A stretch of DNA of 64,000 bases from Candidatus Melainabacteria bacterium 17Bon1m (GCA_032128875.1 JAVLKG010000003.1:65008-129007); one strand, 5' to 3'. Counted from the first letter of the stretch, positions 1 through 55,467 are shown. A program made the numbers and translations. Notes: generated by a model from the letters alone, not told the origin.

Positions 1-164
1 TCGCAGCCGAGAAGGAAACAGCAAGATTGGCTGCTGAAAAGGAAGCAGCACTCGCAGCCGAGAAGGAAACAGCAAGATTGGCTGCTGAAAAGGAAGCAGC
101 ACTCGCAGCCGAGAAGGAAACAGCAAGACTGGCTGCTGAAAAGGAAGCAGCACTCGCAGCCGAG
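1..164 (+). repeat. 51-bp coding tandem repeat, at least 3.2 copies (AAEKETARLAAEKEAAL)
   Basis: Unit tcgcagccgagaaggaaacagcaagattggctgctgaaaaggaagcagcac restarts at 1, 52, 103 and 154 (partial). There is one synonymous change in the third copy. Confidence 0.97.
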
Positions 165-1499
165 CGTTTCAAACCAGCCGCCGGAGCCGAAATCGTCCCT
201 GGAATCAAAGTCGATCAAAAGGTTAGCGTCGAAGGCGTCAACTGGACCGCCGTCGGCAAAGTCGAAGATCGCGTCGTATTTAAGAAGGATAGCGGCATCG
301 AGCGCAGCAAGACTCCACAGGAATTTAAGCCGGGAGATTTCAATCGTGTTGAAATCTCCGGAGAGAAGGGGACTTACTTCCAGCGTAAAGGTTCAAATAC
401 CCTCTATCAATACATTCCTATGGATGGAAAGCAGGGCTTGGAGCCTGGTCCAGGCAATGGTTTCATATTTAAACTGGACGGAGTCGAGGCAAAACCGCTT
501 GGTTCTCCTGTTGTACGTGCGATGTTGAAATCAAGTCTGGCGACTCCGGAAACTAAAGTCGAGCCTGTGGAAGTTGCTAAACCAGCTACAGAGCCAGTGA
601 AGCCTGCGAAGGATGTGCTCGCTCCCCATCAATTGGCTGCAGTAAATGCGCTGGACAAGACTATCGCCGAAGCGCAGAAATACATGGCTGAAAAGCCGGT
701 TGGCGAAGCTGGAACATTCAAGTTTGCCGAACCTCTCAAATTGAATTTCCACGACAAGCCTTTGACCGTCAGTGCGATTGAAGTTGTTGACGGCAAAATG
801 TACCTCAAATCCGCGACAGACGGCATGCGCTACAGCGCTGACGCCTGGCTCAACGCAGTCACTGAAGGCCTGCAAGAACGTTCTGCATCGACCACCATCG
901 CTGCAGCTGATGCGCAAGCCGCCAAACTTTCATTGGAAGCCCTTTCAGCCAGTCCTGAAGCACGCATCGCGTTGATTAAAGCATTGGCTACTAATTTCGC
1001 CGCCGAAACCAAGGCAATAGCTCCTGCCGAAGTAGTTGCCGCAACGACCACCCCCCTGAGAAAAGGCGGCGCCCCAAGTACTGGTGCGCCAACAGGCAAT
1101 CTAGTGGCTTCGGGAGGCGGCACTGAAATTCGCCCGACGGAAGCGGGCGGATATGAAGTGAAATCGCCCAAGCCAGGTGAAACCGCTCTGGCAGGCAAGG
1201 AAGCAGTTGGCAAAGAGGAAATTGCCAAATTGCGCTCCAATATCCTGGAAGACAAAGAAAGAAAATACACCCCCGAAGAGAAAAGACGCGCTTTACAGGT
1301 GCTTGAACTCGCCGAACGCGGCAATGTTGAAGCTCGTGAAGCGTTACGCGGAGCAGTCGGTCGTGGCGGTGGCATAGACAAGGCCACTGGTACGGTAGTC
1401 GGCGTCGGTCTAGTTGTGACCACGCTGGCCGGTTGGTACGCATACGAGCAAATGAAGAGCGCCAGAAATCCCTACGTTGCCCGTGCTTCGGTTAACTAA
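3..1499 (+). CDS. 5'-truncated large protein with Ala/Glu/Lys repeats, one beta-rich module and the shared C-terminal membrane-anchor module
   Basis: The frame is open from the window edge; the TTG at 27 lies inside a repeat and is probably not the true start. The last ~295 aa align by eye with the C-termini of 2499..5777 and 15918..22874. It ends in GTVVGVGLVVTTLAGWYAY. Confidence 0.85.
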   Translation, partial: AAEKETARLAAEKEAALAAEKETARLAAEKEAALAAEKETARLAAEKEAALAAERFKPAAGAEIVPGIKVDQKVSVEGVNWTAVGKVEDRVVFKKDSGIERSKTPQEFKPGDFNRVEISGEKGTYFQRKGSNTLYQYIPMDGKQGLEPGPGNGFIFKLDGVEAKPLGSPVVRAMLKSSLATPETKVEPVEVAKPATEPVKPAKDVLAPHQLAAVNALDKTIAEAQKYMAEKPVGEAGTFKFAEPLKLNFHDKPLTVSAIEVVDGKMYLKSATDGMRYSADAWLNAVTEGLQERSASTTIAAADAQAAKLSLEALSASPEARIALIKALATNFAAETKAIAPAEVVAATTTPLRKGGAPSTGAPTGNLVASGGGTEIRPTEAGGYEVKSPKPGETALAGKEAVGKEEIAKLRSNILEDKERKYTPEEKRRALQVLELAERGNVEAREALRGAVGRGGGIDKATGTVVGVGLVVTTLAGWYAYEQMKSARNPYVARASVN

Positions 1500-1519
1500 G
1501 AAGCAATTGGCAGATAAGC

Positions 1520-1543
1520 TGTCCGCCGATTTCATGGCGGACA
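1520..1543 (+). terminator. intergenic hairpin (possible terminator or stabiliser)
   Basis: tgtccgcc-gatttcat-ggcggaca just after the stop at 1499; no clear U-tract. Confidence 0.35.
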
Positions 1544-1570
1544 AACTGGGTACGGATTTAAAGGCTCCTC

Positions 1571-2494
1571 ATGAAGCAGACTGGCTCTGCTGTTCGGTTT
1601 TTACCTAACCTGTTTTCACGTGAATCGGGAGGTTTTGTGGCTATAGAGGCGATGGATATTTCCGGGTCCGAAAAGATTGTAGATTTCTTCCCCTGGCCCT
1701 TTAGTGATTTAGAAGCGGGTGAGTCCCTGGATATTAGTGCTAGGTGGATTCGCTTCAATGCAGCGTGGCTGACACTTAAGCCTGGGTCGGGAGTCGAACG
1801 GAATTTTGCGGTCCAGGGAATTTTTCAAAATGCGGGTCAAAACTTCGTTCTTCTTCGGCAAGCCCGAATGGATGCACTTGGTCGTAACCATGGATCTATT
1901 CTGGCTCGATTGGACTCAAAGCAAGTTTCACTCCTATCGCAAACTGAAGTTCAAGACCTGCGTGTTCAGATTTCCAGCGAGCTAGAGAGTGTCTTTTCGC
2001 TTTCAGAACCAGAACGGCTGCGTAAATATCAGACCCCTCTGGAAAAGGTTGTTGGACCTCTTACCGATTGGAACCTCAATGAAGGTCCGTCCTTTGCTAG
2101 TTTTCAAATTTCTACCAACTACCAGGTCGAAGGTCGGCATCTTAAGGACGTTGATTTTGTCGCGCTCAGTCAGTGGACTGAGGATGAAGGTGAGGTCTTT
2201 GTCAGGCTCAAATCTGTTCAGTCCGGAATTGGTGATCAGTTCAAAGTGCAGTGGCTGGATCGTGCACCTTCTCTAACTTTTGTTGGAGTGTGTAAACCTT
2301 CTGAACTGGAAGACCCAGGGGACGAGCATCTCACCAATATATTTGTGTGCCACGAAACAGGCGCATTTGAAGTCGCAAACGCCAGTCAGATTTTGCAAGC
2401 AGTGTCGAGAGCGTTTGATGCTGCTGAATTGGGTGAGCCGCTGAACAGCGAGCAAGCCATATCAGTCTTCTCTTCAATTACAGGAGAGGGTTGA
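1571..2494 (+). CDS. hypothetical protein (weak DUF1292-like segment)
   Basis: 307-aa ORF filling the gap and ending 4 nt before the next ATG. LTLKPGSGVERNFAVQGIFQNAGQNFVLL..ILARLD..SLLSQTEVQDL loosely resembles the DUF1292 pattern. Confidence 0.7.
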   Translation: MKQTGSAVRFLPNLFSRESGGFVAIEAMDISGSEKIVDFFPWPFSDLEAGESLDISARWIRFNAAWLTLKPGSGVERNFAVQGIFQNAGQNFVLLRQARMDALGRNHGSILARLDSKQVSLLSQTEVQDLRVQISSELESVFSLSEPERLRKYQTPLEKVVGPLTDWNLNEGPSFASFQISTNYQVEGRHLKDVDFVALSQWTEDEGEVFVRLKSVQSGIGDQFKVQWLDRAPSLTFVGVCKPSELEDPGDEHLTNIFVCHETGAFEVANASQILQAVSRAFDAAELGEPLNSEQAISVFSSITGEG

Positions 2495-2498
2495 TACC

Positions 2499-5400
2499 AT
2501 GGGCGGTGGAAATAGAAAACCTAATGAGCCTGAAAACGAGAAGAATCCATTAGAGCGTCCAGTTAAACCGCCTGCGGAAGCTGAGTTCGATGCAGCGGAC
2601 AATATGCTCGATGAAACAGACAAGGCCGCCGAAAAGAAAAATACCGGCAGCCAAGATGGTCGTGGTGCGGGCGACAATCCGGCAGCACAGAAAGTCGAGC
2701 CCGGTATGGAAGTCAAACTCGGCGGCGAAAAATGGAAGATCGACAACCTTGTTCCTGATAAAGGTCTGGTTGTTCTCAAGCAAGAAGGGCGAGGTCGCGG
2801 CTTTGCAGTGATTGGTGAAATCACGACTCCTGAAGAATTGAAAGAGAAGTATGTTGAAACGGAAGTGGGTGGTCGCAAACTATATTCGCTGAAGGGCGAT
2901 AAGAAAGGAGCTGCATACGAAGTTGTGCCAGGGCTTTCGGGCGAAGGCAAAGTGCAGCTTTTCCCTCGCCACGACTTCAGATTTGTGTCATCTGACGAAA
3001 TCAAAGGCGTGCTTGAAGCACAGCAGCGCGTTGAAAGAGTCCAGCGAATGGCTGATGCACTGCGTTTTCCAAAAGGCAAAGAAGTTAATTACGACTACGA
3101 AAATTGGAAAGTTGCAGAGGTTTTAGGCGACAAAGGGCGAGTGTTGCTGCACAATCCCGAGCATGGCAAAGACTATGCGCTCGTCACCACTAGCGTGACT
3201 AAAGAGCAACTGGAAAAAGACTATACGAAGGTACAAGTTGGCAAAGACGAGCTCTATATCAGCGAAAAGGGGCAGGTCATGCAGCGCTCGCCCATGCCGC
3301 AAAGAGGAGACAAGATTCAGCTCTGGCCAAAACATGAATATGAGGCTCCAACGTTTGGTCAGCTAGATGCTGCAATTGCAGCACAAGAGAAGGCGGCAGC
3401 AAAAGCGGCAAAACCTGCAGAAACGGCCAAGGCTGAGAAACCTGCAGGAGAGAAGAAAGCACCAGGCGCCGCTGAAAGTGTAAAACCCGGAGACCATTTT
3501 GATGTCGACGGTGAAAAACTTGTTGTTGCCGAAGTCGACAAAACCGGCAAATATGCGCTGATTGAAGAAAAACCAGGCAACCGACCGGCCAGAGTGATCA
3601 ATCCAAGCATTGAAGAAATGACGCGTGATTTCAAGCCACTAGAAGTCGGCGACAAAGTCTATTACATAAACGATTCTACAGGCGAAGTTTATGAGCCGAC
3701 CGGAAACGGGCGTGAATTGAAGGAAGTGCAGAATCGTTCGGCTTGGCCTGTTAAAGATTTGAAAGTGGCTGCCAGTGAAGAATTCAAAGATATCTTCAAG
3801 GCCGTAGATGCGAACGACAAAGTTGGTGGTGAGCGTGAAATCAACGGACACAAAGTTAAGGTCACGTCTGATGGACCGATGCGCACGCTCAATATCGACG
3901 GTAAAGACTACAGGCTTTTTGGCAGCAGCTGGTTCAGCCATGATTTCACAGGTCCGAACGGAAAAGTGCTTCCGCATGGCGATGTGAAGATACACGTTTA
4001 TGGAAAAGACCCGAAAGACCTCGCTAAGGTTCAAGCGGAGCTTATTCCCGAACTGATTCGCGCTACGGAACCTGGCGGTCCTCTGCATGGCAAGCTGGGT
4101 GGATTTAAGACTCACGATCCCATGCACATGGTTAAGGATGGATGGGAAAATGTCACGCCTATTAATGATGGGCGCTCGGACAAATTTATGCCTGGGCCGA
4201 CTGGTCAGAACGCCAAGGGATTCACAATATATCCGCGCGACGCTGAAGCTGCTAAGCAAGTCCAGGAATATCTGGGCAAATTTTTAGCTGAACGTGGACT
4301 GCGCATGGACGAGAAAGTCGACAGTAAAAACGTTGGCGATCGATCGCTGGATAAATCATCTAATCGCGTTTCTCTCGAGCGCGATCTCTATGAAGTCGGC
4401 ATCGTAGGCAAGGGAGAACAGGGCGCTCTTCTGCCTGCAGAGCAAGAGGCTGCGATTAAAGAGTTCGCGGAAAAGAAAGTGGCTGCCGGCGCCAAAGGTT
4501 GGGAGCAGTTCAAATCCGCAGCAGATCTTTATACGGATGAGTCTCGAACAATGTTGAAGGATGCTGTTCTCAAACAGCTGAATCAGGAATTCAGGCTTGA
4601 TCCGCGATTGTGCTCGCTGGCTTACGCTGATGCGGTTCCGGGCGAGACTCAACGACGTGTGATGCTGGTAAGCAACGATGGATCGCACAATCACAAAGGC
4701 TCATATTATCTCGATGAATCGAAAGCGAGGAAGGAAAAGGACATCACTTACGATAGCGAGGGCAAGCTGAAGACTGGACTTACAGGACGTCCGGCGATGT
4801 ATGAAATTGCCAAAGTGCTATCCGAGTCTACCGGCAAAGATCTTGATCCGGCGATATTGCGCGCCGAGCAAGTTGCTCGCATCAACGCGATTTTGCCGGT
4901 GGAGGAAGCCGCTGCAGTCAACGCATTGAAGAGTACTTTGAAATATGCCGAGGACGCAGCTTCTCGCAGACTGCCCGGTGAAAATGGGCTGCATAAGCTC
5001 GAACAGCCGTTGAAATTGAACTTAGGCGGCAAGCCTTTGAATATTGGTGCAATCGAAGTTGTCGATGGACAGATTTATTTGAAGTCCGCTGAAGACGGTA
5101 CTAGATATCGAGCACAGCCGTGGCTCGATGCAATCACGGAAGGACTGCGTGAAAGGGCTGCTGCAAAGGACGGCACTTCGTATTCTGCAAAGCAGGCTTT
5201 AGCCCAACTTGAGGGCAATCTCGAAGCACGGGTAGCGCTTGTTAATGCTCTGGCAAAGGAGTATGCGTTCAACACCAGAGTACTGACTCCTCCCGCCACC
5301 GAGAAGGCCGCGGAAATTGTTGCTGGAAAGCCACTTCGCAAGGGCGCTGGCAGCCAGGTATTCAGTGGCAATTTTACTCCTTCAGGAGGCGCTGCTGAAA

Positions 5401-5777
5401 TCGGTGTTACCGAAGGTGGTGGCTACAAGGTTACTGAAAAAGGCGGGGAAAAGGGAGGTGCTGTTCCTCGTCGCTTTGAGGAAATTCCGCGCGAAGAAAT
5501 AGCGCAGATGCGAGAGCGCATCATGAACGAGAAAAAGCTTAGTGCAGAAGATCGAGCCGCCAGCTTGCGCGTTCTCGAGCTTGCGCAAGAAGGCGATCCT
5601 CGTGCTCGCGAGGCCATTGGTAGAGCGATGGCTGAGGTGAAAAGAGGCGGATTTGATAAGACCACCGGCGCTGCTGTTGGCGTAGGAATCGTTGTCTCAG
5701 CTCTGGCAGGCTGGTACGCGTATTACAAGATGCAGCAAGCGCGTGAACCATATGTGCCGAAGGCAGTTGTGCGTTAG
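2499..5777 (+). CDS. large modular protein: three beta-rich repeats, a phosphothreonine-lyase-like domain and the shared C-terminal module
   Basis: 1092-aa ORF with SD-like ggagagg upstream. Motifs GDVKIHV, FK and KGFTIYP; C-terminal GAAVGVGIVVSALAGWYAY. Confidence 0.85.
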   Translation: MGGGNRKPNEPENEKNPLERPVKPPAEAEFDAADNMLDETDKAAEKKNTGSQDGRGAGDNPAAQKVEPGMEVKLGGEKWKIDNLVPDKGLVVLKQEGRGRGFAVIGEITTPEELKEKYVETEVGGRKLYSLKGDKKGAAYEVVPGLSGEGKVQLFPRHDFRFVSSDEIKGVLEAQQRVERVQRMADALRFPKGKEVNYDYENWKVAEVLGDKGRVLLHNPEHGKDYALVTTSVTKEQLEKDYTKVQVGKDELYISEKGQVMQRSPMPQRGDKIQLWPKHEYEAPTFGQLDAAIAAQEKAAAKAAKPAETAKAEKPAGEKKAPGAAESVKPGDHFDVDGEKLVVAEVDKTGKYALIEEKPGNRPARVINPSIEEMTRDFKPLEVGDKVYYINDSTGEVYEPTGNGRELKEVQNRSAWPVKDLKVAASEEFKDIFKAVDANDKVGGEREINGHKVKVTSDGPMRTLNIDGKDYRLFGSSWFSHDFTGPNGKVLPHGDVKIHVYGKDPKDLAKVQAELIPELIRATEPGGPLHGKLGGFKTHDPMHMVKDGWENVTPINDGRSDKFMPGPTGQNAKGFTIYPRDAEAAKQVQEYLGKFLAERGLRMDEKVDSKNVGDRSLDKSSNRVSLERDLYEVGIVGKGEQGALLPAEQEAAIKEFAEKKVAAGAKGWEQFKSAADLYTDESRTMLKDAVLKQLNQEFRLDPRLCSLAYADAVPGETQRRVMLVSNDGSHNHKGSYYLDESKARKEKDITYDSEGKLKTGLTGRPAMYEIAKVLSESTGKDLDPAILRAEQVARINAILPVEEAAAVNALKSTLKYAEDAASRRLPGENGLHKLEQPLKLNLGGKPLNIGAIEVVDGQIYLKSAEDGTRYRAQPWLDAITEGLRERAAAKDGTSYSAKQALAQLEGNLEARVALVNALAKEYAFNTRVLTPPATEKAAEIVAGKPLRKGAGSQVFSGNFTPSGGAAEIGVTEGGGYKVTEKGGEKGGAVPRRFEEIPREEIAQMRERIMNEKKLSAEDRAASLRVLELAQEGDPRAREAIGRAMAEVKRGGFDKTTGAAVGVGIVVSALAGWYAYYKMQQAREPYVPKAVVR

Positions 5778-5800
5778 CATTTTTTGTGAGGACTTTCGAC

Positions 5801-8800
5801 ATGGGCGATACTGCAAAGCCTGGAAAGAAGGAAGACGAGGTCAAACGGCCCCCGACTCCTGAAGAATTGCCGCAACCAGAAGAGCTTGATGATGAGGAAG
5901 GTAGTTTAGCCGATGAGGCTGATGAGCTCTTCGAGGAGCAGGGTGGAGACCCTGAGCGTGCCGGGGAAGGCAAGGGCGAAGCAGGTTTGGAAAAGCTGCA
6001 ATTTCCTCTCAATGTCGTTGAGTCGGAAGAGGATAAGCGCACTGCCAAGTTGCAGGACTTCCTGATTCAGAAATTGGAAAGGGTCTATCTTCCGATTGAA
6101 GGAAAAGACGAAGCGTACATGACTGACCTGCTAGAGCGCATGAAGAAAGAGCGCTCAGGTGAGGTCAATAAAACCAATCCTGGTCATCCTGAGTTTGGCG
6201 CAGCAACTAAAGAGTTGTTTGCCGCTTATAAAAATAATTTGGAAAATCGGCAGCTGAAATCGGTAATGACCGAGTTGTCGACCATGGATCTTGGTTCGCC
6301 TTCTTTGAGTCCTGAGCGCCTGAGAATGGAGAACCATGCCGGCAAGATGCTCCCAGAGACACCGGCGTCATTTCTCGCGAGAATGCGGCGGGGAGATACG
6401 GAATTTAAACTGCAGACGGCCGAAAGCGGAAAAATGGTCGACGTCGATACCAATAAGCTCCCAACTGATGATGTTTTCAAACGCATCCAGTCTGCCGAAG
6501 ATTTCATGACTTGGGCAAACGACAAGGTGATCCTCGATCGCAAATTGCGCTATCACGAGAATCTTTTAGAAGAACGAATCAAGAAAGAGGGCTGGCCGAA
6601 AGAGTGGTTGGAAAGCCCGATGAAACAAACCAATCGAGCTGGTTGGTGTATGGCTGTTATGGAGCGCATGACTGACTCGACAAGCATGGCTCGCTCAATT
6701 GAATCGCTGTACGCTATGCGTACAAAGCAAGGCATGGCCAACTATGGCGATGAAGCCTTAAAAAATCTTCCGAAGCATGTTCATGTTGAAACTGAAAAGC
6801 GCGACGGCAAAGAGTACGTCAAGCGGGTTACGTTTGACCAGCCGCTTGATCTTGATCTGCGCAATCCCGACTTTCTCAAGAATCGCCAGGGTGAAGTTAA
6901 CTGGCAGACCAAGCATGGACGCGAAATCGACAAGCTCGTAATGAAGAGCGATATGGCTCACGCGAATATCAAAAACTGGCTTTTCCAGGGCGATATCAAA
7001 GTGCCCGGTATGCAGGTCATTGTCGATAAAAAGACCAATGAAATTCTCGGCATGCACAAGAAAGATGTGCTGAAAGACCCGGCAAAAATGGAGATGATTC
7101 TTCAGGAAGCAGGCAAAAAACGTTCTGATGTGACAATTGAAGATGCTGATATGATGCGCTGCCGCATCAATGCAGGCGAAGAACGTGGTGAAAGTGGGGA
7201 GTTGAAATTCGTCACGATAGATTATGGCGTGCAGTATGGATTGACTCCGCCCATCAATTACCACAACCTTTTCATGTCGCCAATCGGCAAGCCCAGCCGT
7301 CCTTCTGCAGAAGGAGAAGCTGACGGTCTGCAGCGTTTCAAGCCAGATGAGATTGTAATCGGTAGAGATGGTCATGGCGAAGATAAGCCGATGCCGGCGA
7401 AAGATGTCGCGCTCTATGCTCAATGCGAAGACTTGAAACGTGCGCTGGATGTTGGTGTTTCGGTGGTAATGGATGCGTCGATGATTCTTGGTGTGGGCGC
7501 CGCCTTCCAGGGTGTACGCCTGGTCAGAGCAGCACACGGCGCTATGGATTTGATTCGTGCCGGACAAGCCGGTATGGCGGTCGCCAACGGTGTTGCATCG
7601 AAAGAAATGGCGGCGGTGGGCTACAGAATGATCCGCCACGGTGTTAAGGACTTCGCGCTGGGTGCCTCCGCTTTCATTAATAACGACACTGTACAGCAGT
7701 ACCGTGGATATTATTTTCTCGGTCATGCTGCTTCCGGGTTGCCCGGCGTCAATCGCATCACAGGCGCTATAGCTGGGCGTTTTGGTGGTGCTCGAGACGT
7801 AGAAACTCTTAAGTCTTTGAAGGACGCAGCTTTGGCTGACGGCAAAACTCTGAAAGAAGTTCGATCGTTGGGGCTTTCGGAAGGCGCTTTCTATTCAGCA
7901 ACAAAGCCGCTTGCAGAAAAGGGCTTCAAATACAGCAATTATGCCTTTGCAGGAATACTCAGTCATGAGTTGTGGAAACAGTCTGAGTTCATCAATGGTA
8001 TCGGTTCTGCCGACGGTTTTGCGATTGCTAAAGACCGTATGAAAGGCGTCGATACGCAAGGCAAGAAGCGTACGCCCGAAGAAGAACGCGTTCGTCAAGA
8101 TGAAGTGCATCGTACTGCCAGCCGTATTTTGGAAGACTACAGCAAGAGCACGACTGGAAATGGCGCCGAAGTAAAATCGATTGCAGATCGGACAAAGGCA
8201 CTGTTGGAGCCACCTCCCAAGGAATTGAAAGGCGCCGAGCTGGATGCCTGGAATGCAAAACGCAAGGCGGATATTGAACAGTTCCAAAAAGATTTGCGTG
8301 CCAATTATTTGCAGTTTGACGGAAAGCGTGTCGCTGATCTGGAGCGTCAGCGTGCAGAGAAAACGCCTTCGAATGCAACAGATGTCGGCAAACTGCAAGA
8401 CGACCCGGTGTACGTTCAAAGTGTGAAGCTGGAAGGCGATAAACTCGCTGCAGCAGTCGAGGCGTACCGAGCCAAAGAGGAAGAGTACAAAAAACTCGGC
8501 GAAGCAAAAGATGACGCGGAAAGAGCTCAGCGCAGAGATGATTTAGCCAAACTGAAATTTCAAAAAGAGTTTGCCCAGGACCGTTATGACAGCGCTGCTT
8601 CTGGTCAAACTTTGGCTGTGCGAGGATTGGAAACATCAGATCCAAAGTTGGACAACGGTGCGCCGGAGCGAAAGTTTGCCGACCGTCTGGATGCGCAGAA
8701 AGCCGCTGCTCTAGCTTACATGCTGCTGTATTCCGCAGACGGCAAAGAGCTGCCTGCTGATGGCGTTCTTGCAAAAGATTCAATGACAATTCCTGGTTGG

Positions 8801-15895: not shown

Positions 15896-15917
15896 ACGAA
15901 TCTGAAATAACGAACTT

Positions 15918-18900
15918 TTAGCGGACGTCTGCGCGTCCGATGTAGGGGCTTCTGGCGCTGTTCATCTGCTCGTAGGCATACCAACCGGCAAGAGTAGTCA
16001 CCACCATTCCCATGCCTACGAAGCTTCCGGCCGCTTTGTCTATGCCTGCGCCGCGACCAACCGCTCCTCGAAGAGCCTCGCGTGCCTCTTTATGACCGCG
16101 CTCTGCCAATTCGAGAACCTGCAGCGCACGTCGTTTTTGTTCCGGCGTGTATTTGTTTTCCCGGTCTTCCAAAATTTTGGATCTCAATCGAGCAATATCT
16201 TCCTTCGGCATTTCCGCCCCGGCTCGAATTTCTCCTTCTGCTGGCTTCTCGCTCGCAACTTCATATCCGCCTGCTTCTGTGGAGCGTATTTCGGTGCTGC
16301 CTCCGGCCGCTACGAGCGGAGCGCCGCTTGTGGCAGAGACGCCTGGCGTTGTTGTTCCACCTGCTGCGCCGCCCTTTCTGAGTGGAGTAACAGCCGGTGC
16401 GGCGACAGCGACTGTTTCCGCTCCGGCAGGTGTGACTGCTTTTGACTCGAGAGCGAAATTGGAGGCAAGCGCTTTGATGATTGAGACTCGAGCATCGATG
16501 CTATTTGCGATCGACTCGAGTGAGACTTTTGCTGCTTGTGCATCGGCTGCTGGAATAGCAGTTGAGTTGGCGCGCTCTTCCAAGCCGTCTTTCACTGCGT
16601 TTAGCCAGCCTTCAGTGCTATAGCGTTTTCCATCTTTGGCGGCCTTGAGATAGAGTTTTCCTTCAACAATGTCTATACCACTGACTGTAAGCGGCTTGTC
16701 TTTGAAGTTGAGCGTAATTGGTTCGGCGAATTTGACCGTTCCTCCCTCTGCTACTGCCTTTTCGGCTAAGTATTTTTGCGCATCGGCAATCGTGAAATCA
16801 ATTGCGTTGGAAGCCGCTAGTTGATGCGGAGCCAGTCCTACGCGCACTACTCCGGCGTTTCCTACTGAGTATGTTTCACGCTCTTCGATGGTTTTGGCTA
16901 GTTTTGGTTTTTTCTCGGGATTGAAAAGAAAGCGGTTGCTCAGTTCATCTGTAGCGGTTGCAGCGGATGCACCATTGTTGATTCGATATGCTGCAACCAC
17001 TGCCGGGGCGCGATCTGTTCCGCTGAAGTCTTGTACGAAGACTCTGCCGTTTTTTCCTTTTACTCTTTCAATTTCAGCAAGTACTTGGTTTATTTGTTCT
17101 TGAGTCATCAGATTTGGGTCTTTGACTGGCAAATGTTTGTACTCGACGTTGTTGAGTTCGCACCACTGTTTTTGTGCTTCGTTGGGCTTTTGTCCCAGAT
17201 CGATGATGGTAGTGACGCCCATCTCTTTTAGTGATTCCAGCGAATCTACTAAAGGAAGCTTTTTGCTGTCGCTCGGCTTGGAGCCGACAAGCAGGTCAGC
17301 GCTCACCTCGGTGAAGCGGTTGATTCCTGGCACTGTCGTAATTTCCTTGAGTGGATGCTCAACGCTGAACAGCTTCTCTTTCACAACTTGATCGATAGAT
17401 TCTTTGAAGCGAGTTGCGTCTGCTTGAGGATATTGGGAAGCCAGTTCTTGCGCACGGTATGTCAGAAGCTGGCGCATGATTTCCACTTTGGCTTTTTGAA
17501 ATTGCGACGCTTCAGCCAGACTTGGGTCGAGAACAATTGAGAGCGTTTTATCCTCCACCATGCGCGTTCCGGTTGGAGTGCCGAATTCAACGTTCACTCT
17601 GATGCCTTCCAAGCCGAGATTGGCATTTGTTTTCTGGTGTTGCTCGAGGAAATTCTGCAGTCCTTCTTTGAGCATGGCTCGCAGTTCTTGAGGTTTGTTG
17701 CCTTCACCTGGTTTGAAGGCGCTTTCCATGCTTTCGGAATATTCTTCGGCCGCTCTTGAATGGACTGACTTCAGCAGTTTGGAGACAGTTTCTCTTTGTG
17801 CACGGGGGTCGTTGATGTCTTTGAAATCAGATGCTGCGTTTTCCAGTTCAAGCTGACCTTTAGATTCAATGTGCGCTTTGGGTACGCCAAGATAGTTAGC
17901 CAGGTCGCTCAGCAGTCGAGCTGTGGTGTTTGAGCGAATGTGAGACATGAAGAGGGAGGAAACAACTTTGGCACCATTCACTTTTTCGCCTGGTTTATAT
18001 GTTTCGGCGTTCCAGTCCGGAGCGCCAAGAATTCTTTCGGCTTCTTTGACGGTGAACTCTCCTGTGCTTTCCGGCAGACCTTCCGTTATCTCGGGGTGCC
18101 TTGCAAGCAGACGTGAAATTTTGGCGCGCTGCGGAGAACTCGCTGCTTTCGAGTAGGCATCTTGATATTCAGCCTGAGCAATGATTTCCACGCCTGCCAG
18201 ATTTCCAGCCTCCGTTGCGACTTTTATGCCCTCTGCGTATCCGAACAAGTTTGCGATGGCGACTTTTGCTCCATTCGCTTTCAGTTCTTGCATCTTTGGA
18301 ATATTCTTCTGTGCTTCTGTGCCGCTGTATATTCCATCGTTGAGTTGAACGAAGCAAAGCCCGCTCCCCTTCATAGCCTTGGCTTGTTCGAAGGTGATGA
18401 ATTTTCCGTCGAACTCTTTGCCTTCCATGCCATTTGCGAGTCTGTACAAATCAATGGAAAGATGATTGCTGTTGACCTTTTCGTCGACGATGAAGAAAGT
18501 GTTCTCTTTCGTCGCACCTAGCCTTTTGGCAAGCGAGTCCTGCAATCCGTGTGCTTGTTTGATCAAGTCGTCATATCTGCCGACGTCGAGAGAGGCATTT
18601 GCCACCATTGCGTGAAGTTGAACGGGTCCACCCAGGTTGGCTTGTTTTTGCGCGAAATACAGCAACGACCCTGCTTCGACCCGTGCTCTGTTTTCGTTGT
18701 TTTTCTGCTGCGCGAGGTTTTTCAGCAGCTTGAATTCGTTTTCGGTAGTGACACCAGGGGGGTGGTTGGTAGCGTCTCCTTTCAGCTCCGCTGGACGTCC
18801 TGCTCGCTTTGCTTCTTCGAGCATTAGATTCAATTGTTGTTTTGCCTGCGCCGGGTCTCCTGTCGCTTCTGCAACGGCTAGATGCTTGTAATTCAAGCCT

Positions 18901-21900
18901 TTTTGGAACGCTTCCAATTCACTTGCCACGCGCAAGTTCGATGCTGCTTTTACACTTTCACGCATGCTTTCGGGCACGCAAGACATTGGTTCAATCAGCA
19001 CACCTTTGCCGGTGGGGAGCGGCTCTCCTGGTTTTAAAACCTCCAGCTCGACTTGTAGGTGAGTGTGTTTTTTGAGTTGGTACGCCAGAGCCTTTGTTTG
19101 CGTCGATTCGCTGAATGTGTAGAGTTTGACAGTTTCGACTTGGCGACCGCGCGACTCGCCGGTGGCCTTTACGACTACCATATTCTCTTTTCGAAGTTTT
19201 TCTGCGAAGTCATTGAGCTGGTTAATGAAACCTGCTTCGGTTAGATGTGCAGCACGTTCTGCCAGTAATTCCAAAGCCAGAGCTCGCTCTTCCGGGCTTT
19301 TGTCTGCGAGCAGTTTATCGATTGTTTCTTTAGTCAGTTCTTCGCCGACTATTTTGTTGGTGATGTCTGCGATGATTTCTGCCGTAGGTTTTGTGTCGAC
19401 CAATCCAGGCTCGGACTTGAGCATTTTTCTCAATTCATCAGTCAGCCAGCGCACTTGGTCGATGGATGCCTTGCGAATCATCTCGGGTGTTATGTGACGC
19501 AGGACGTCTTTGTAGACTGAATCTTTGATGTCAGAACGCTCTGGGTTGCCGGATTCGCGAACAATGTCGATGAGCAATCTTGCTTGAGTCTCTTTGGAGA
19601 GTTGTTCCATCTGCTCAACTGTGATTGAGCTGGTGAGCTGCTTGAGCTGTTCGTTGGATAAGTTTTGGAAGTCACTGGCCTGGAGGTTTTTCAAAATCTC
19701 GAAAGTCGCAGGCCGTCTTTCGGAGTTGACGGACGGCAATCCGCCGGCGGCGCTTAACCAGGAGCTGATGAACTCATGCCGGCTAGCCTCAATGCCATTT
19801 TTGAAGCGACTTTGGAATTGAGAAACCAGTTCTCTCGTCAATTCTTCTTTGCGGGCATCAGTGAGCGTAGGCAAGTATTGTTTTGCGGAATTGGCGAGCT
19901 CGACAAATCTTTCGTTGGAGAGTGTTTTCAGTTTTTCTGTCGGCGTGTTTTGTAAAACCTGCCACGCCAGCTCCGGCTCTGCGGTGAGCATTTCGACCAG
20001 CGCGTTGCGCCCGTCCTTAGCGAGGATGCTTTGCTCGAGCTGAAGCCAGTCGTTTCGCTGAACTTTCAGTCTTTCAATTTCTGGGTCGCGAATCGGCAGT
20101 GATTTGATGTTTTTAGAGATTTCGGCAGCTTGTTGCTTCGCATACTCAGAGAGCTCTAAAGCCACGGCTTCAATGTCTTCCGGAGTTTTTAACTTGATCT
20201 CGCGGAACTTAAGGTTGGCATCTTTTCTGGAAAGTTCCAAAAATTTTGCTTGGAGGGCGGTATCGCGGTACAGGTCTTCCAGGCTCATTCCTGGAAAACG
20301 CCGGGCCAGGTCCAGTACTTTATCTTTGGCTGCCAGGCATGCTTTTGCGTCTAATTCGCCGATTGCTTCCTGCATTATGCATGCAGCACCGAGTGAATCC
20401 CGGAAATTTGGTTGAAGCAGTCGTGATGAGACCAGCTCTCTAGCTTTCTCAATTGTTTTGGAAGTGATTTCGAGGGCGGGATTTTCCTTCTGAAATCGAT
20501 CCACTTCCATTGATTCAGTGACGCTCAGACCCAAGCGTTCTCGCAGCCCTCTGGTGTTTGCAAGTTCTGTCTGAGTGCGATTTACATTTTCAGGTGTATC
20601 CGCGTCTAAGCCTTGAGAAATCAGAAGGAATGCGGCTTCCATCCTGTCTATTGGCTTAACGTTTTCAGGAACATTTACTTCTTTGAATTCATGTTGCAGC
20701 GCCATATAGTCGCTGGCTTCGTTAAGTCTCGTTAGATCAATGCGTTTTGCGTTTGCGTCTTCTAGAATCCGCGTATAACGGCGAATTTCGTCCTCGGCAA
20801 ACTGCGTCGACTTCAGGTCTTGAATAGCGTGATGATCCAAAGCGCCTTTTATCAAACCCTCTTCAATGGCTTTGCGACTGCCTTTGGGAAGAGTCATGAT
20901 TTTGATCATCTCTGTTTGAGTTTTGATCGTGCCTCGGTCGAGTGCATCGAAATAGCCTTTAAGAGTCTTTTCTGTCGGCTCCGTTTTGAAAATCTGGGTC
21001 AAACATTCGGACGATAATGGATTTTTGTCGTATTTCACTTCTAGCATGCGCTCGCGAATGGTCTGCTGCAGTTGCTTGTCTGCAGCCATCATTTCGTTAA
21101 TGTTTTCAGAAGTGATCCGATTGGCTTTTTTTTCCACCAAAAGTTTAGACATCAGGTCCGCGTAGATGCCGTCGCCCGCCATCAGTTTGACACTCTGCGC
21201 GCTAAGTTCTGACTCGCGCATCAATGCTGCCATCGAGGCTCTGTATCCCTCGGTTTTTTTGACAAACCTATCCAGTAGTTCGGAAGTCATAACCTCCGAG
21301 CTGATCGATTTGCGAATGGCTTCCAGCCCGCCATTTGGATAGTCTTGCGAAGCCAGAGCCTTGAATGCGTCAGCCGTGATTGCTTTGTCGCGCGTTACCT
21401 CAGGTTTGCTTTGATCAGCCAAAATTCCTACCAGAGCATCGCGTTCGGAGCGCTCGTGCTTCTCAACTGCCAGAATGTCTTTAGCGTCTAAGCGCAGTCT
21501 CAGTGAAGCGTTGCGATATGCTTCGAGGTCTTTATCACTAAGTGTTTTGTCGGTAGCCAACTTCACAAAGGCTTCGGTTTGATGAACATCGGGACGGGTG
21601 TGCGTAAAGAGTCCAATCAGTCCATCTCTGGTTTGATGCTCTAGCTTCAGAAGAGCTCTTGCTGTCTTCGGATCAACGATGCCATTGGCAATAAAGTTGG
21701 AAAGGGTGCCGACGCGCGAAGTTTCTATGGATTGTGAGAGCATCTCGTTGGCGATGTCGACTGGCAAAGTTCTCTTTTCCAGCCCGTCACGAAGCCTTAT
21801 GGCATCTGGCTCGGCAAGGTTTAAAAGTTCTGTTGCAGCTTTCGGAGTTGTTTTTTCACCCAATGTCTGTTGTAAGTGCACGAGGACCGACGCGCGAACA

Positions 21901-22874
21901 TCAAAGTCTTTGCCCTTCATCGACAAAGCCTTTATTTGGTCCGTGGCGCTGAGATCCTCGAAGCTCTTAATAAGTTTGGGAGTATCGGCTCTCAGGTCGA
22001 GGATTTTTTTGACATTTTCTGCATTGACGTTTTCCGGCTTCAGTGCATTAAACAGGCTGCATGAGCCTTCTCGCTTAACGAGTTCATTGATAGTGTCGGC
22101 GTTGAGATTCAACATCGACGACACGCGCTCCGGCGACATTACCTGCTTTTCTTTGTCCAGCATGTTTACGACATCTTCGCGCGTATATTCGTCCAGCTTT
22201 ATGAGCTTGCCGAGGTCTCTATGATCGATGCGCTTGTTGACGACGAGTTTTTTGTATTTTTCGATCTCGGACGGCTTTATTCCAGCCTTTCCCATATAGT
22301 CATATGCTGATTGGGCTGACTCGAATCCGCCCAACCCTTTGACGGCAAGTACTGCCGATGCGGCTTTGTAGTCTGGCAGTTTGAGGCTTTCTTTGATATT
22401 GACGATTTCGAGCGCTGCATGTGACGGCAATTTTCCTAGTCCCGCCTCTTTGCGAACCTCAGCTAATTTGGCCGCTTCCAGCTTTGCCGCTTCAATGTCT
22501 GCGCCTGACTGCCCATCCTTTTTCTTTGACAAAAGAATTTCTGTTATGTCTTGAACCAAAAGCTCGTTGCCTGGCGTGTTGCCTAGTTTTTCGGCAACGC
22601 GTTTTTTTACCGCTTCTTGAGCGGGATCTGCCGGAGTTGAGTCCTTTTGAGAATCACCTTGTGAATAAATTGATTGACTGAAGTCTAGCGCTGCGGGCGG
22701 CGCGCCGGATTGAACTTCAGGGACGCTTGAACTCGAGCCGTTTTTGCCATTTCCCTCTGTTCGGGTTTTCGTGACTTCTTCTTCGGCGGCGTCGAGAAAG
22801 TCGCCTTCTTCCGGCGCCGTTTCTGGCGGGCGTTCAACTTCTTGCGGTTTGGTTGGTTTTATTGGTTCGGGCAT
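15918..22874 (-). CDS. large modular protein: helical region, PRTase-like domain, dual-specificity-phosphatase-like domain and the shared C-terminal module
   Basis: 2318-aa ORF. Motifs FVQLNDGIYSGTEA, LKEMGVTTIIDL..VFVQDFSGTDRA and C-terminal GSFVGMGMVVTTLAGWYAY. Confidence 0.9.
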   Translation of the reverse strand: MPEPIKPTKPQEVERPPETAPEEGDFLDAAEEEVTKTRTEGNGKNGSSSSVPEVQSGAPPAALDFSQSIYSQGDSQKDSTPADPAQEAVKKRVAEKLGNTPGNELLVQDITEILLSKKKDGQSGADIEAAKLEAAKLAEVRKEAGLGKLPSHAALEIVNIKESLKLPDYKAASAVLAVKGLGGFESAQSAYDYMGKAGIKPSEIEKYKKLVVNKRIDHRDLGKLIKLDEYTREDVVNMLDKEKQVMSPERVSSMLNLNADTINELVKREGSCSLFNALKPENVNAENVKKILDLRADTPKLIKSFEDLSATDQIKALSMKGKDFDVRASVLVHLQQTLGEKTTPKAATELLNLAEPDAIRLRDGLEKRTLPVDIANEMLSQSIETSRVGTLSNFIANGIVDPKTARALLKLEHQTRDGLIGLFTHTRPDVHQTEAFVKLATDKTLSDKDLEAYRNASLRLRLDAKDILAVEKHERSERDALVGILADQSKPEVTRDKAITADAFKALASQDYPNGGLEAIRKSISSEVMTSELLDRFVKKTEGYRASMAALMRESELSAQSVKLMAGDGIYADLMSKLLVEKKANRITSENINEMMAADKQLQQTIRERMLEVKYDKNPLSSECLTQIFKTEPTEKTLKGYFDALDRGTIKTQTEMIKIMTLPKGSRKAIEEGLIKGALDHHAIQDLKSTQFAEDEIRRYTRILEDANAKRIDLTRLNEASDYMALQHEFKEVNVPENVKPIDRMEAAFLLISQGLDADTPENVNRTQTELANTRGLRERLGLSVTESMEVDRFQKENPALEITSKTIEKARELVSSRLLQPNFRDSLGAACIMQEAIGELDAKACLAAKDKVLDLARRFPGMSLEDLYRDTALQAKFLELSRKDANLKFREIKLKTPEDIEAVALELSEYAKQQAAEISKNIKSLPIRDPEIERLKVQRNDWLQLEQSILAKDGRNALVEMLTAEPELAWQVLQNTPTEKLKTLSNERFVELANSAKQYLPTLTDARKEELTRELVSQFQSRFKNGIEASRHEFISSWLSAAGGLPSVNSERRPATFEILKNLQASDFQNLSNEQLKQLTSSITVEQMEQLSKETQARLLIDIVRESGNPERSDIKDSVYKDVLRHITPEMIRKASIDQVRWLTDELRKMLKSEPGLVDTKPTAEIIADITNKIVGEELTKETIDKLLADKSPEERALALELLAERAAHLTEAGFINQLNDFAEKLRKENMVVVKATGESRGRQVETVKLYTFSESTQTKALAYQLKKHTHLQVELEVLKPGEPLPTGKGVLIEPMSCVPESMRESVKAASNLRVASELEAFQKGLNYKHLAVAEATGDPAQAKQQLNLMLEEAKRAGRPAELKGDATNHPPGVTTENEFKLLKNLAQQKNNENRARVEAGSLLYFAQKQANLGGPVQLHAMVANASLDVGRYDDLIKQAHGLQDSLAKRLGATKENTFFIVDEKVNSNHLSIDLYRLANGMEGKEFDGKFITFEQAKAMKGSGLCFVQLNDGIYSGTEAQKNIPKMQELKANGAKVAIANLFGYAEGIKVATEAGNLAGVEIIAQAEYQDAYSKAASSPQRAKISRLLARHPEITEGLPESTGEFTVKEAERILGAPDWNAETYKPGEKVNGAKVVSSLFMSHIRSNTTARLLSDLANYLGVPKAHIESKGQLELENAASDFKDINDPRAQRETVSKLLKSVHSRAAEEYSESMESAFKPGEGNKPQELRAMLKEGLQNFLEQHQKTNANLGLEGIRVNVEFGTPTGTRMVEDKTLSIVLDPSLAEASQFQKAKVEIMRQLLTYRAQELASQYPQADATRFKESIDQVVKEKLFSVEHPLKEITTVPGINRFTEVSADLLVGSKPSDSKKLPLVDSLESLKEMGVTTIIDLGQKPNEAQKQWCELNNVEYKHLPVKDPNLMTQEQINQVLAEIERVKGKNGRVFVQDFSGTDRAPAVVAAYRINNGASAATATDELSNRFLFNPEKKPKLAKTIEERETYSVGNAGVVRVGLAPHQLAASNAIDFTIADAQKYLAEKAVAEGGTVKFAEPITLNFKDKPLTVSGIDIVEGKLYLKAAKDGKRYSTEGWLNAVKDGLEERANSTAIPAADAQAAKVSLESIANSIDARVSIIKALASNFALESKAVTPAGAETVAVAAPAVTPLRKGGAAGGTTTPGVSATSGAPLVAAGGSTEIRSTEAGGYEVASEKPAEGEIRAGAEMPKEDIARLRSKILEDRENKYTPEQKRRALQVLELAERGHKEAREALRGAVGRGAGIDKAAGSFVGMGMVVTTLAGWYAYEQMNSARSPYIGRADVR

Positions 22875-23237: not shown

Positions 23238-24908
23238 CTATTTTGCATATCCAAGAGCTTGAGCAATGCCCAGATCGCGCATAGCCAGGTCGTATTTCCC
23301 TAACATTCTGTATGCCGAGCCGCGGTCATGGTACACCGAGGCAAAGCGCGGGTCGATGTTTATCGACTTGGTGTAGCAGTTGACTGCCTGTGTGTACTTC
23401 GACAAGTACATGCATACTGAGCCAAGGTTTCTCCAAGCGTCCTTGTCTTTTGGAGCAAGCGCCGTAGCCTTTAACAAATCGGCTTCCGCTTGCCGATATT
23501 TTTCAAGTGCTGCATAGCAAGCGCCTCTGTTGACATAGGCTGATGCGCATTTTGGATCGAGAGCTAATGCCTTGGTGGCGTCAGCGATACCGTAATTGTA
23601 TTGCTCGCGGAACATGTATAAGCAGGCGCGAGCTGAGTAGAGTGGCGCATATTTAGGCGCAAGGCTCAATCCTTTAACGCAGTCCTGATACGCTTCATTC
23701 TCGCGTTTGAGTGCAATGAGAATATGCACTCTGTGTGCATAGGCTGCAGGTGATTTTGGTTGTAATTCAACCATCGTATTGGCGTCTCTGAGTGCATCAG
23801 AGTACCGCGTCAGAAGAAAATAAAGTTCTGATCTCAACCTGTACGCTTCAATACTTTTCGGGTTTTCTCTCACGCATTTTGTGAGTACATCCAGGCATTT
23901 ATCCCATTTAAGCCGGTCTGCGTATATCTGCGCCAGCGGCAAATAGGGGTCGAGAAATTTTGGCGACAATTCCAGAGATTTCGTCAGGTCATTGAGAGCC
24001 TTGTCGTTCTTCTGCTTCAACGTGAGCAGACCACGCATGTAATAAGCGATTCCCGAATTCGGATCGTTTGCCACCGCCATTTCCGCATCCTTCATTGCTT
24101 GCGCAAGCTGCTTCATTTGGAAAAACGTATTCGCGCGCACGCTGTAAGCCAGACTTTGCCTCGAGTCCAGGGCAATGCTTCGTCCTGCATTTACAATTGC
24201 CTGGGTGTAATTCTTGTAGTGGTTTTCGAGCTGTGCTTGCCGTGCATATGCTGAAGCTAAATTGGGACTGAGTTTTTGCGCTAAAGCAAGATCGGCTTTT
24301 GCATTGTCCCACTTTGTCAAAAACATATAACAGCCGGCTCTGTCTGAAATAAGTGCGGCTTGGTTTGGTTTTTCTTTCAGGGCTAAATTGAGTTGGTTGA
24401 TCGCTGCTTGGAAGTCACCCTTGCTCATTAACTGAGCGGCAAGTTCAGCAGCGTTAGGTTGCTGCGGTTCTGGCGATAAAGCTTTGTCGACAGCAGCATT
24501 GTCGGTAACAGCATCCAACGTTTGCATTTGTTTTTCATCGGCTTGCGCTTTTTCGAGTTCTCCCGATTCTTTGTAAGCGCCTGCTCTTCCCGAAAGCGCG
24601 CGGACGTTTTTGGGATCTTTTTCCAGGCAAGTCGTGAAAGTTTCAATCGCCGAGAAAAATAGCTTGTCGTTTAGCTGCTTGTAGCCTTGCGACAGCAGCT
24701 CCTCAACCGTCGATTCGGCTGTCGAACTTTCCGGCAGAGGCTGAATTTCAGCCATTGGAGGGCGTTGAGGGATGGCCTGAGCGGCGAGAAAACTTCCGCA
24801 CAACAATGGAATTAGAAAAGCGCACGCTGCTGCTCTGAAGGCGAAACGGCTGGAGATTTGTAGGTTTTTCGAATCGATTTGCGAACGTGAATTGCTGGCA
24901 AATTTCAT
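23238..24908 (-). CDS. exported tetratricopeptide repeat protein
   Basis: Signal-peptide-like N-terminus (AAACAFLIPLLCGSFLAAQA); many TPRs such as ASAYVNRGACYAALEKYRQAEADLLKATALAP; SD aaggag. Confidence 0.92.
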   Translation of the reverse strand: MKFASNSRSQIDSKNLQISSRFAFRAAACAFLIPLLCGSFLAAQAIPQRPPMAEIQPLPESSTAESTVEELLSQGYKQLNDKLFFSAIETFTTCLEKDPKNVRALSGRAGAYKESGELEKAQADEKQMQTLDAVTDNAAVDKALSPEPQQPNAAELAAQLMSKGDFQAAINQLNLALKEKPNQAALISDRAGCYMFLTKWDNAKADLALAQKLSPNLASAYARQAQLENHYKNYTQAIVNAGRSIALDSRQSLAYSVRANTFFQMKQLAQAMKDAEMAVANDPNSGIAYYMRGLLTLKQKNDKALNDLTKSLELSPKFLDPYLPLAQIYADRLKWDKCLDVLTKCVRENPKSIEAYRLRSELYFLLTRYSDALRDANTMVELQPKSPAAYAHRVHILIALKRENEAYQDCVKGLSLAPKYAPLYSARACLYMFREQYNYGIADATKALALDPKCASAYVNRGACYAALEKYRQAEADLLKATALAPKDKDAWRNLGSVCMYLSKYTQAVNCYTKSINIDPRFASVYHDRGSAYRMLGKYDLAMRDLGIAQALGYAK

Positions 24909-41717: not shown

Positions 41718-41787
41718 TCCCGGGGGCTGCCTCGCCTTGTTTTAGATTGATCTAGGACACTCCACACCCTACTCATACCCACTTTTT

Positions 41788-55306: not shown

Positions 55307-55467
55307 GACTGTTCTCCTTATCATGAGTATTCCGATCGGGCACAGCTGTCGCCCAATGCGGTGAGTTACGTAAACGACATTTCACGCCCGATCGCGCGGC
55401 TTGCTTGCCACCTGCGACTCGTGCGTGAGATTCAGAGTTGGATTCAAATTTGCGATATCGAGAACTC

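Follow-up and report, generated by a model that had tools for sequence, protein, structure and literature searches.

What role is played by three long proteins that are encoded close together, carry different front parts and share a common C-terminal end? The question is raised by a 64,000-nucleotide stretch of DNA (hereafter the window; JAVLKG010000003.1:65008-129007 of GCA_032128875.1, our G000:C3:65008-129007) from Candidatus Melainabacteria bacterium 17Bon1m. The contig that holds it measures 1.1 Mb; the assembly totals 7.55 Mb in 35 contigs and is 93% complete with 4.5% contamination. Almost all that is known of the non-photosynthetic sister lineages of the cyanobacteria comes from metagenome bins, and how their large-genome members live is mostly a matter of guesswork. 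Five long genes occupy the first 23 kb of the window, namely gene 1 (the C-terminal part of its product is designated P0001) and the genes for P0002, P0003, P0005 and P0004. The gene 1 product, P0003 and P0004 belong to a lineage-restricted modular family with a constant C-terminal part.

Architecture of the C-terminal module

The C-terminal ~295 residues of gene 1, P0003 and P0004 align over 311 columns, the other two copies being 48% and 69% identical to that of gene 1. Copies 1 (618..1499) and 2 (4890..5777) lie on the plus strand and copy 3 (15918..16838) on the minus strand, all three being delimited by alignment and profile. An initial annotation of the sequence had recognised this module, and the motifs that it listed are all visible in the alignment (PLRKG, TExGGY.V, VLELA..G..AREA, LAGWYAY and PY...V). 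A profile built from the three copies has exactly three matches in the 7.55-Mb genome, which are the window's own, with E values of 1e-147 to 1e-162, and the likeness is therefore far beyond chance.

We modelled the module with AlphaFold2 (AF2) from a 21-sequence alignment, at a predicted local distance difference test (pLDDT) score of 80.9 and a predicted template modelling (pTM) score of 0.68. Residues 1-132, with a pLDDT above 90, are predicted to fold as an alpha/beta sub-domain (sub-domain A; 618..1022 in copy 1, plus strand) composed of two helices, a four-stranded sheet and three helices. The part that follows residue 132 (1035..1496 in copy 1, plus strand) comprises a disordered linker with the PLRKG motif, a beta-hairpin with the GGYEV motif and three short helices. 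The module ends with a helix spanning residues 259-281 of 293 (G-x-G-x-V-V-x-x-L-A-G-W-Y-A-Y) and a 12-residue tail. This terminal helix is moderately hydrophobic (best 17-residue Kyte-Doolittle mean of 1.45-1.76 within the last 60 residues), and P0001, P0003 and P0004 hold no other hydrophobic segment at a 19-residue Kyte-Doolittle mean of 1.6. A single hydrophobic helix close to the C-terminus, with no N-terminal signal sequence, is the arrangement that sequence and model both predict, and it is that of a putative tail-anchored protein.

The module corresponds to no named family, in agreement with the initial annotation. Pfam, NCBIfam and PADLOC match nothing in the module region, Foldseek returns no match from the PDB at E<=1e-3, and in a profile search no PDB sequence scores better than E 0.15. 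A wide VIA-align search, the list of which barely sampled sub-domain A, gave a best Z of 5.6, confined to the helical C-terminal third.

The module is also rare, with 30 matches at E<=1e-3 (18 at E<=1e-10) among 1.84 billion representative proteins. We judged ~27 of the 30 to be genuine. P0020, P0032 and P0034 look spurious; among them are a T9SS repeat protein, another repeat protein and a surface protein of Gram-positive-like type. In 22 of the ~27 genuine matches, the alignment runs to within a few residues of the protein's own end. The other five (P0011, P0019, P0022, P0028 and P0031) align with a region of the module closer to its start; four of them still finish in a similar hydrophobic helix and tail, and P0022 consists of the front sub-domain only. 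Judged by the matched profile positions, the first sub-domain is present in part of the relatives, and the region from residue ~140 onward is commoner. The relatives range from 92 to 2629 residues and their N-terminal parts are mutually unrelated; ten clusters of distant relatives are mostly single sequences from metagenome assemblies. One short relative, P0016 (166 residues), joins by eye an enoyl-CoA-hydratase start to a module tail like the end of P0009, and is probably an assembly chimera, not a real fusion.

Many relatives have a second, internal and short hydrophobic segment followed by basic residues, as in ..YGGYxxIKxGxK..; a proline-rich region frequently precedes it. It was seen in P0013, P0017, P0037-P0040, P0046, P0049 and in gene 1 upstream of an assembly gap described below. 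This recurrent segment, with its basic residues, bears on the topology of the proteins.

A giant protein family and a shorter C-terminal unit

P0005 (5786..15895, plus strand), a giant of 3369 residues, begins 8 bases past the end of P0003. Its conserved N-terminal domain of ~700 residues (6023..8125, plus strand), which includes a Gly/Ala-rich hydrophobic stretch at residues ~550-720, defines a protein family. Beyond this domain the protein is helical-repeat like, and its initial description as a HEAT/TPR protein is borderline, with TPR_12 at 30.0 bits (cut-off 30.1) and HEAT likewise short of its cut-off. The N-terminal domain has no sequence relative in the PDB, and a language-model search returned weak leads only (a PT-TG cluster at 0.86, with a low shared count).

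A profile of the first ~700 residues of the giant (A6) matches 61 of 104 genomes of the same bacterial family, up to 13 times per genome and almost always within open reading frames (ORFs) of 1400-6800 codons. At E<=1e-8, it has no match in any of the 297 genomes that represent the remaining 11 families of the class. The genome of 17Bon1m has one copy of the giant family.

Many proteins encoded beside giants in related genomes have in common a C-terminal unit of ~100 residues, which corresponds to 1197..1496 (plus strand) in gene 1. A second profile (A7), made by aligning the last 100 residues of 15 ORFs neighbouring giants, is characterised by an A-H-(R/K) motif within helices, a linker rich in glycine, an x-G-I-x-V-S-A-A-L-A-x-Y helix and a polar spacer. 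The helix is Gly/Ala-rich and moderately hydrophobic, the tail has 17-25 residues and ends in (R/K)-A-x-V-x(0-2)-[RKN], and in every member checked the end of the unit is the last residue of the protein. The window modules are the best-scoring A7 members, and in their own genome A7 finds the three window proteins only (E 1e-28 to 1e-31), the next best match having an E of 0.45. The ~295-residue module is a genus-level elaboration of this unit, to which the PLRKG linker, the GGY-E-V beta-hairpin and an alpha/beta domain of ~135 residues are added upstream. A crude C-terminal signature (a hydrophobic 17-mer and A.[VI] near the end) matched 49 of 7436 mechanically defined ORFs of the genome; it was too loose, and the A7 profile was used instead.

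The distributions of the unit and of the giant overlap closely, as judged by descriptive counts over related, non-independent genomes, which are not statistical tests. The unit is present in 22 of the 104 family genomes, 21 of which also have the giant N-terminal domain; G120 (70% complete) is the sole unit-bearing genome with no match to it. Conversely, 20 of the 21 genomes with a best giant match at E<=1e-50 (a post hoc cut) have the unit, the exception being G006 (79% complete, 1250 contigs), as do 2 of the other 83 genomes, in which the giant match is weaker or missing. By hand count, at least 31 of 51 listed unit matches are within ~13 kb of a listed giant match on the same contig, a figure that is too low, since short contigs are frequent and 22 giant matches were unlisted. 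Among 16 loci chosen through the giant alone, 10 hold an anchor-family ORF (BLAST single-linkage clustering).

The link between module genes and the giant, which had been noted for the window itself, recurs in other assemblies. A metagenome contig (L014) encodes, in this order, a P0002-like ORF, P0009 (lyase head and module) and, 12 bases downstream, a giant homologue, with identities to the window proteins of 27% (E 3e-15), ~44% and 43% over 1764 residues, respectively. On a contig of a congener, an orthologue of P0004 is convergent with an orthologue of the giant at 86% identity, as P0004 is with P0005 in the window; a second congener locus has the same pair, and the two were counted once. 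A diverged cassette in G002 comprises a 665-residue protein with a diverged tail, a 279-residue ORF and a 1935-residue distant giant homologue (E 3e-14). By sequence comparison, the giant family is the constant companion of the C-terminal unit, usually encoded adjacent to it.

ORFs of 279-415 residues in eight loci (L018, L045, L048, L049, L050, L051, L052 and L056) cluster with the giants by BLAST and adjoin the giant in most of them; they are probably helical repeats. The window has no separate gene of this kind, and P0005 is ~1400 residues longer than most of its relatives.

Head domains

The heads that precede the unit are swapped between relatives, which bears out the proposal of interchangeable upstream cargo. 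Among the parts seen in relatives are FHA, AvrB-like, HExxH, lyase-fold and DSP-like ones. Pfam reports FHA in two of them and AvrB_AvrC in one (25.9 bits, cut-off 23.2), and a DSP-like match in one relative in addition to P0004; the HExxH motifs and a kinase-like glycine loop were recognised by eye only.

P0003 (2499..5777, plus strand; 1092 residues) consists of an acidic disordered N-terminus, three small beta-rich repeats, a head (3831..4883, plus strand) and the module. We modelled the head (residues 445-795) with AF2 from 8 sequences (pLDDT 86.8, pTM 0.83) and compared it with known structures. Almost all of the first 18 Foldseek ranks are taken by lyase domains or SpvC/VirA (E 6e-4 to 2e-2), and the leading matches, to SpvC/VirA/OspF and to the lyase domains of class III lanthipeptide synthetases, together span E values of 6e-4 to 5e-2. 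VIA-align returned lanthipeptide lyase domains at Z values of 9.8, 9.3 and 9.0 (ThurKC at 9.8, with a root-mean-square deviation of 2.7 Å over 126 residues, and CuvL at 9.0), followed by chain B of the LxmKY lexapeptide dehydratase complex (8.7), HopA1 (8.5), OspF (7.9) and SpvC/VirA (6.5-7.5). The Z values are moderate and the list of matches is coherent. Our model therefore suggests that the P0003 head shares the fold of phosphothreonine/phosphoserine lyases, of the type found in OspF/SpvC and in lanthipeptide synthetases, and the lyase-like domain of the initial annotation holds at this level.

Sequence searches reached less far. A language-model search gave VRP3 clusters at 0.79-0.81, which we treat as a lead only, Pfam reported neither VRP3 nor RamC_N for the head at E<=0.1, and phmmer found nothing among PDB sequences at E<=10. 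All 8 rows of the lyase-head alignment have K53, K93 and K129, and 7 of the 8 keep the histidine of a K-x-H motif (Gly in P0038); by analogy with SpvC, the conserved Lys and His are candidate catalytic residues. Proteins that end in other hydrophobic C-termini can carry the lyase head as well, and a word-indexed search for short stand-alone homologues of the head came back empty.

P0004 (15918..22874, minus strand; 2318 residues) has a long helical N-terminal part, a weak PRTase-CE-like stretch, a DSP/PTP-like domain (16944..17255, minus strand) and the module. The PRTase-like domain proposed for it is a weak call, as the stretch scores 17.9 bits (E 0.003) against a Pfam cut-off of 27. The DSP/PTP-like domain is matched above cut-off (27) by PTP-SAK (30.0 bits) and Tc-R-P (29.4 bits), the best Pfam models for P0004, both of which come from polymorphic-toxin/effector sets. 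DSPc reaches 27.8 bits, below its cut-off of 33.5, and the best match to a DSP in the PDB has an E of 8e-5.

A partner gene of the lyase head

P0002 (1571..2494, plus strand; 307 residues) has no family in Pfam or NCBIfam and no relative in the PDB. P0002-like ORFs are rare, being found in 3 of the 104 family genomes at E<=1e-3, on L014 and in one further case detected by a profile of their own. All four clear cases adjoin a lyase-fold ORF, and 4 of the 6 lyase ORFs seen have such a neighbour, located upstream of the lyase in the window and on L014 and directly downstream of it in L052 and in G015 (L022). The ORF behind P0037 was tested and is not P0002-like. P0002 appears from these comparisons to track the lyase head rather than the module, and we propose that it may be an inhibitor, immunity protein or chaperone of that head.

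The G015 locus (L022, contig G015:C457, 6677..13195, minus strand) encodes a protein of more than 1440 residues in which the lyase domain is the C-terminal tip and the tail unit is missing; HExxH and Cys-protease-like motifs were noted in it by eye. Directly behind it are a 144-residue P0002-like ORF and then an ORF with, by eye, the end of an Rhs core. At the sequence level, this arrangement resembles that of a classical polymorphic-toxin locus in which the lyase/partner pair of the window is employed.

The wider C-terminal unit, the giant family as its companion and the way P0002 follows the lyase head all go beyond the initial annotation.

Organization of the locus

Gene 1 (3..1499, plus strand) is an ORF that is open at its 5' end. 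The window starts within a 51-bp tandem repeat, which encodes a 17-residue AAEKE.. repeat (1..164, plus strand, equal to L008 2501..2664), and exactly 100 N directly precede the first base of the window (L008 2401..2500), within that repeat. An open frame of ~590 codons reaches the N run from the upstream side. Because the N run lies inside the repeat and an open frame precedes the gap, we take gene 1 to encode a single protein of at least ~1100 residues, split by the assembly gap, and not one of ~500 residues; its repeat number and true length are hidden by the gap. Upstream of the gap, the gene 1 product has an N-terminal domain that resembles that of P0039 (E 1e-20), a proline-rich stretch and a short hydrophobic segment. 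The N-termini of the window proteins are short, polar, acidic disordered stretches.

The four plus-strand genes (gene 1, P0002, P0003 and P0005) are separated by 71, 4 and 8 bases and so resemble one operon. Upstream of P0004 lies a TPR protein gene (23238..24908, minus strand), and a similar gene is present in three related loci.

Farther away, 39740..42279 (minus strand) holds genes for a DUF6932 protein, a 227-residue ORF and, ~1.2 kb from the DUF6932 gene, an AAA_33/Zeta-toxin-like kinase; this set may be of toxin-antitoxin or defence type and unrelated to the proteins discussed here. A nicotianamine-synthase-like gene, uncommon in bacteria, lies at 54332..55324 (minus strand; Pfam NAS, E 6e-17). 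An anti-phage defence role for the locus was considered and dropped, with no match from PADLOC.

Conflict-type proteins or internal signalling

We tentatively favour, at slightly short of an even chance, the reading that the three proteins are modular conflict-type (effector or toxin) proteins with a C-terminal anchor and address unit. The unit would act as a membrane anchor and an address label, taking different heads to the site of action of the giant, and the heads would be conflict-type effectors. The lyase head would remove phosphate from phosphothreonine or phosphoserine irreversibly, by beta-elimination, with P0002 as its dedicated partner; the DSP-like head might be a phospho-binding or atypical phosphatase domain; and the FHA, HExxH protease-like and AvrB-like parts of the relatives would be further effector heads. 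The target could be another cell or the producer's own membrane. We favour a conflict role because of the shuffling of heads, the domain models from toxin sets, the layout in G015, the small partner gene and the patchy, multi-copy and fast-diverging distribution.

Several observations weigh against this reading, and a number of them speak for its main rival, a cell-autonomous role that we rate as somewhat unlikely. The proteins would then be tail-anchored phospho-signalling proteins of the inner membrane, with cytoplasmic heads and the giant as a scaffold, and nothing would be exported. No N-terminal signal peptide was found in the module proteins, which by default leaves the heads in the cytoplasm and the helix in the producer's own membrane, and the single C-terminal helix with its short tail fits that placement. 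The markers of type III and type VI secretion systems (T3SS, T6SS) and of contractile sheaths that were searched for, namely VipB/TssC, TssF, FHIPEP (SctV/FlhA) and Phage_sheath_1, are all unmatched in the 17Bon1m genome (93% complete). Genes of type IV secretion system (T4SS) type are present; they are unlinked to the locus and near-universal in the family, and they show no co-variation with the system. No export machine is thus linked to the locus.

The neighbourhood and the heads can likewise be read in favour of internal signalling. A Ser/Thr protein-kinase gene lies ~2 kb upstream of gene 1 (L004 14122..16140), and genes of Ser/Thr-kinase-like proteins are repeatedly found close to giants (8 ORFs in 7 of 22 loci), although kinases are common in such genomes. 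The FHA heads of two relatives fit an internal phospho-signalling role, whereas the AvrB-like, HExxH and toxin-set DSP heads argue against it, as does the G015 lyase tip with its P0002-like ORF behind it and an Rhs-core-like ORF beside it. The locus is surrounded by housekeeping genes, with no transfer RNA in the window, no integrase or transposase family among the scanned neighbour genes and no composition break; given these absences, the idea of a mobile island was dropped. Against this setting stands the very patchy, multi-copy and fast-diverging distribution, which would be unusual for a housekeeping signalling device.

Two further points detract from the conflict-type reading. In P0004, 'VQDFSGTDRAP' aligns with 'IHCRAGYGRTG' of a solved DSP, so that Asp replaces the catalytic Cys and the Arg is kept (DX5R, not CX5R); the congener orthologue P0007 has the same Asp. 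A phosphatase-like domain is therefore supported by the PTP-SAK and Tc-R-P scores and questioned at its catalytic position, and the domain may, from its sequence, be a pseudo-enzyme or an atypical enzyme. In addition, the order of P0002-like genes is not strictly toxin-then-immunity, and 2 of the 6 lyase ORFs, one of them at a locus edge, have no P0002-like neighbour.

Improbable in our judgement is an envelope or surface structure, in which coiled-coil or repeat stalks would be fixed by hydrophobic segments as fibres or tethers, with the giant as structural partner and the heads as secondary additions. The internal hydrophobic segment with its basic residues, the proline-rich stretches and the very long coiled coils that many relatives have (for example P0039, P0049 and gene 1), together with the tandem 17-residue repeats of gene 1, would suit such a structure, but such a segment is missing from P0003 and P0004 at the Kyte-Doolittle threshold used above, the heads are well-folded enzyme folds, and no signal peptide is there to export a stalk. 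A classical polymorphic toxin locus of the Rhs/CdiA/LXG kind with a known export route, in which the module would be a lineage-specific pre-toxin or repeat region, is already disfavoured and very improbable, for although toxin-set Pfam models match P0004 and G015 has an Rhs-core-like ORF and the toxin-then-small-ORF order, the module proteins show the opposite polarity (constant C-terminus, variable N-terminus), Pfam reports no Rhs, LXG, PAAR or filamentous-haemagglutinin match for the five window proteins, and T6SS markers were not found.

A candidate delivery route

If the heads are conflict-type effectors, as we tentatively favour, their way to a target becomes a question of its own. VirD4-type coupling proteins (PF02534) have four matches in the 17Bon1m genome, and CagE_TrbE_VirB (PF03135) is unmatched there. 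One coupling protein adjoins a 939-residue VirB4-type P-loop_TraG ATPase on contig C1 at ~802-809 kb (L062 4751..11393), and a P-loop_TraG ATPase site is also present at C3:886317. Two others adjoin relaxases on the small contigs C27 (L060 5051..8422) and C17 (L061 7201..11364), and these pairs are probably mobilisable or conjugative elements. The P-loop_TraG ATPase family occurs in 103 of the 104 family genomes, usually as two copies of ~940 residues; for this reason it is unusable for a co-occurrence test and looks like a core T4SS-type device of the lineage, not like a mobile element. The T4SS-type ATPase pair is the only candidate export machine that we found in the genome. T4SS substrates are recognised by C-terminal signals. 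For Vampirovibrio chlorellavorus, a related predator, Soo et al. 2015 (PMC4451040) propose that effectors enter the algal prey through a T4SS.

The giant family and the unit-bearing proteins could accordingly be pictured as an undescribed delivery or membrane-targeting system of this Obscuribacterales-type family, in which the label would be read by the giant or by the T4SS-type ATPases and the heads would be aimed at other cells, although we consider this specific proposal doubtful. If it were true, large-genome non-photosynthetic relatives of the cyanobacteria would live by attacking or manipulating prey or hosts. In literature searches that did not cover subscription journals, we found no paper joining Melainabacteria or Vampirovibrionia with tail-anchored proteins, phosphothreonine lyases or polymorphic toxins, and nothing on Obscuribacter with effectors or giant proteins.

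Three unnamed families thus travel together and are confined to one bacterial family, namely the C-terminal unit, the giant N-terminal domain and the P0002 family, and their logic is modular, with one address unit and many enzyme heads. Should the heads be effectors, they would offer a handle on interactions with other cells, as well as new phospho-protein-modifying enzymes and a natural inhibitor; should they be internal, they would be an unusual case of bacterial tail-anchored signalling enzymes. On either reading, the families can now be defined by profile.

Comparison with known systems

The initial annotation described the locus as a polymorphic effector system of reverse polarity. The constant part is indeed C-terminal, and this is not unusual in itself. 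Other known systems also join variable N-terminal cargo to a constant address module at the C-terminus, examples being the BID domain and tail of Bartonella type IV effectors, the C-terminal domain of the type IX secretion system (T9SS) and the signals of the type I secretion system (T1SS).

In the Bartonella Bep effectors, FIC or phosphorylation modules vary at the N-terminus, and the C-terminal BID domain, with a charged tail, is constant. The window proteins resemble them in having a constant helical module and a short charged tail at the extreme C-terminus with exchangeable heads in front, in the number of paralogues (several per locus) and in the T4SS-type ATPases of the genome. In contrast to the Bep proteins, their module has a hydrophobic helix, matches no solved sequence or fold and is tied to a giant protein and not to a T4SS operon, and translocation is here only putative.

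Tail-anchored proteins, including bacterial effectors that insert in host membranes, share three features with the window proteins: one moderately hydrophobic helix lies in the last ~35 residues, a signal peptide is missing from the N-terminus, and the large part in front of the helix would stay on one side of the membrane. The window module differs in being conserved to the last residue after the helix and over ~60-250 residues before it, which is far more than an anchor needs. Sortase, exosortase and rhombosortase sorting signals, which go with an N-terminal signal peptide and place a signature motif ahead of the helix and a basic cluster at the very end, differ in two respects, since the window proteins have no signal peptide and the terminal motif of their module follows the helix instead of preceding it.

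Polymorphic toxin systems (Zhang et al. 2012, PMC3482391) are similar in the shuffling of toxin-type heads, in the small partner gene beside one head type, in their patchy multi-copy spread and in the toxin-set Pfam models that match P0004. Unlike Rhs, CdiA and LXG proteins, in which the N-terminal trafficking region is conserved, the window proteins are conserved over their last 100-295 residues; they have no known trafficking domain, and the partner gene can lie on either side of the gene for its head.

The closest likeness in fold is that of the P0003 head to the OspF/SpvC/HopAI1 lyases and to the lyase domains of class III/IV lanthipeptide synthetases, with which it would share the K-x-H motif and two further invariant Lys residues. 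It differs from them by ~150 extra residues and by its fusion to the module or, in other proteins, to different C-terminal anchors.

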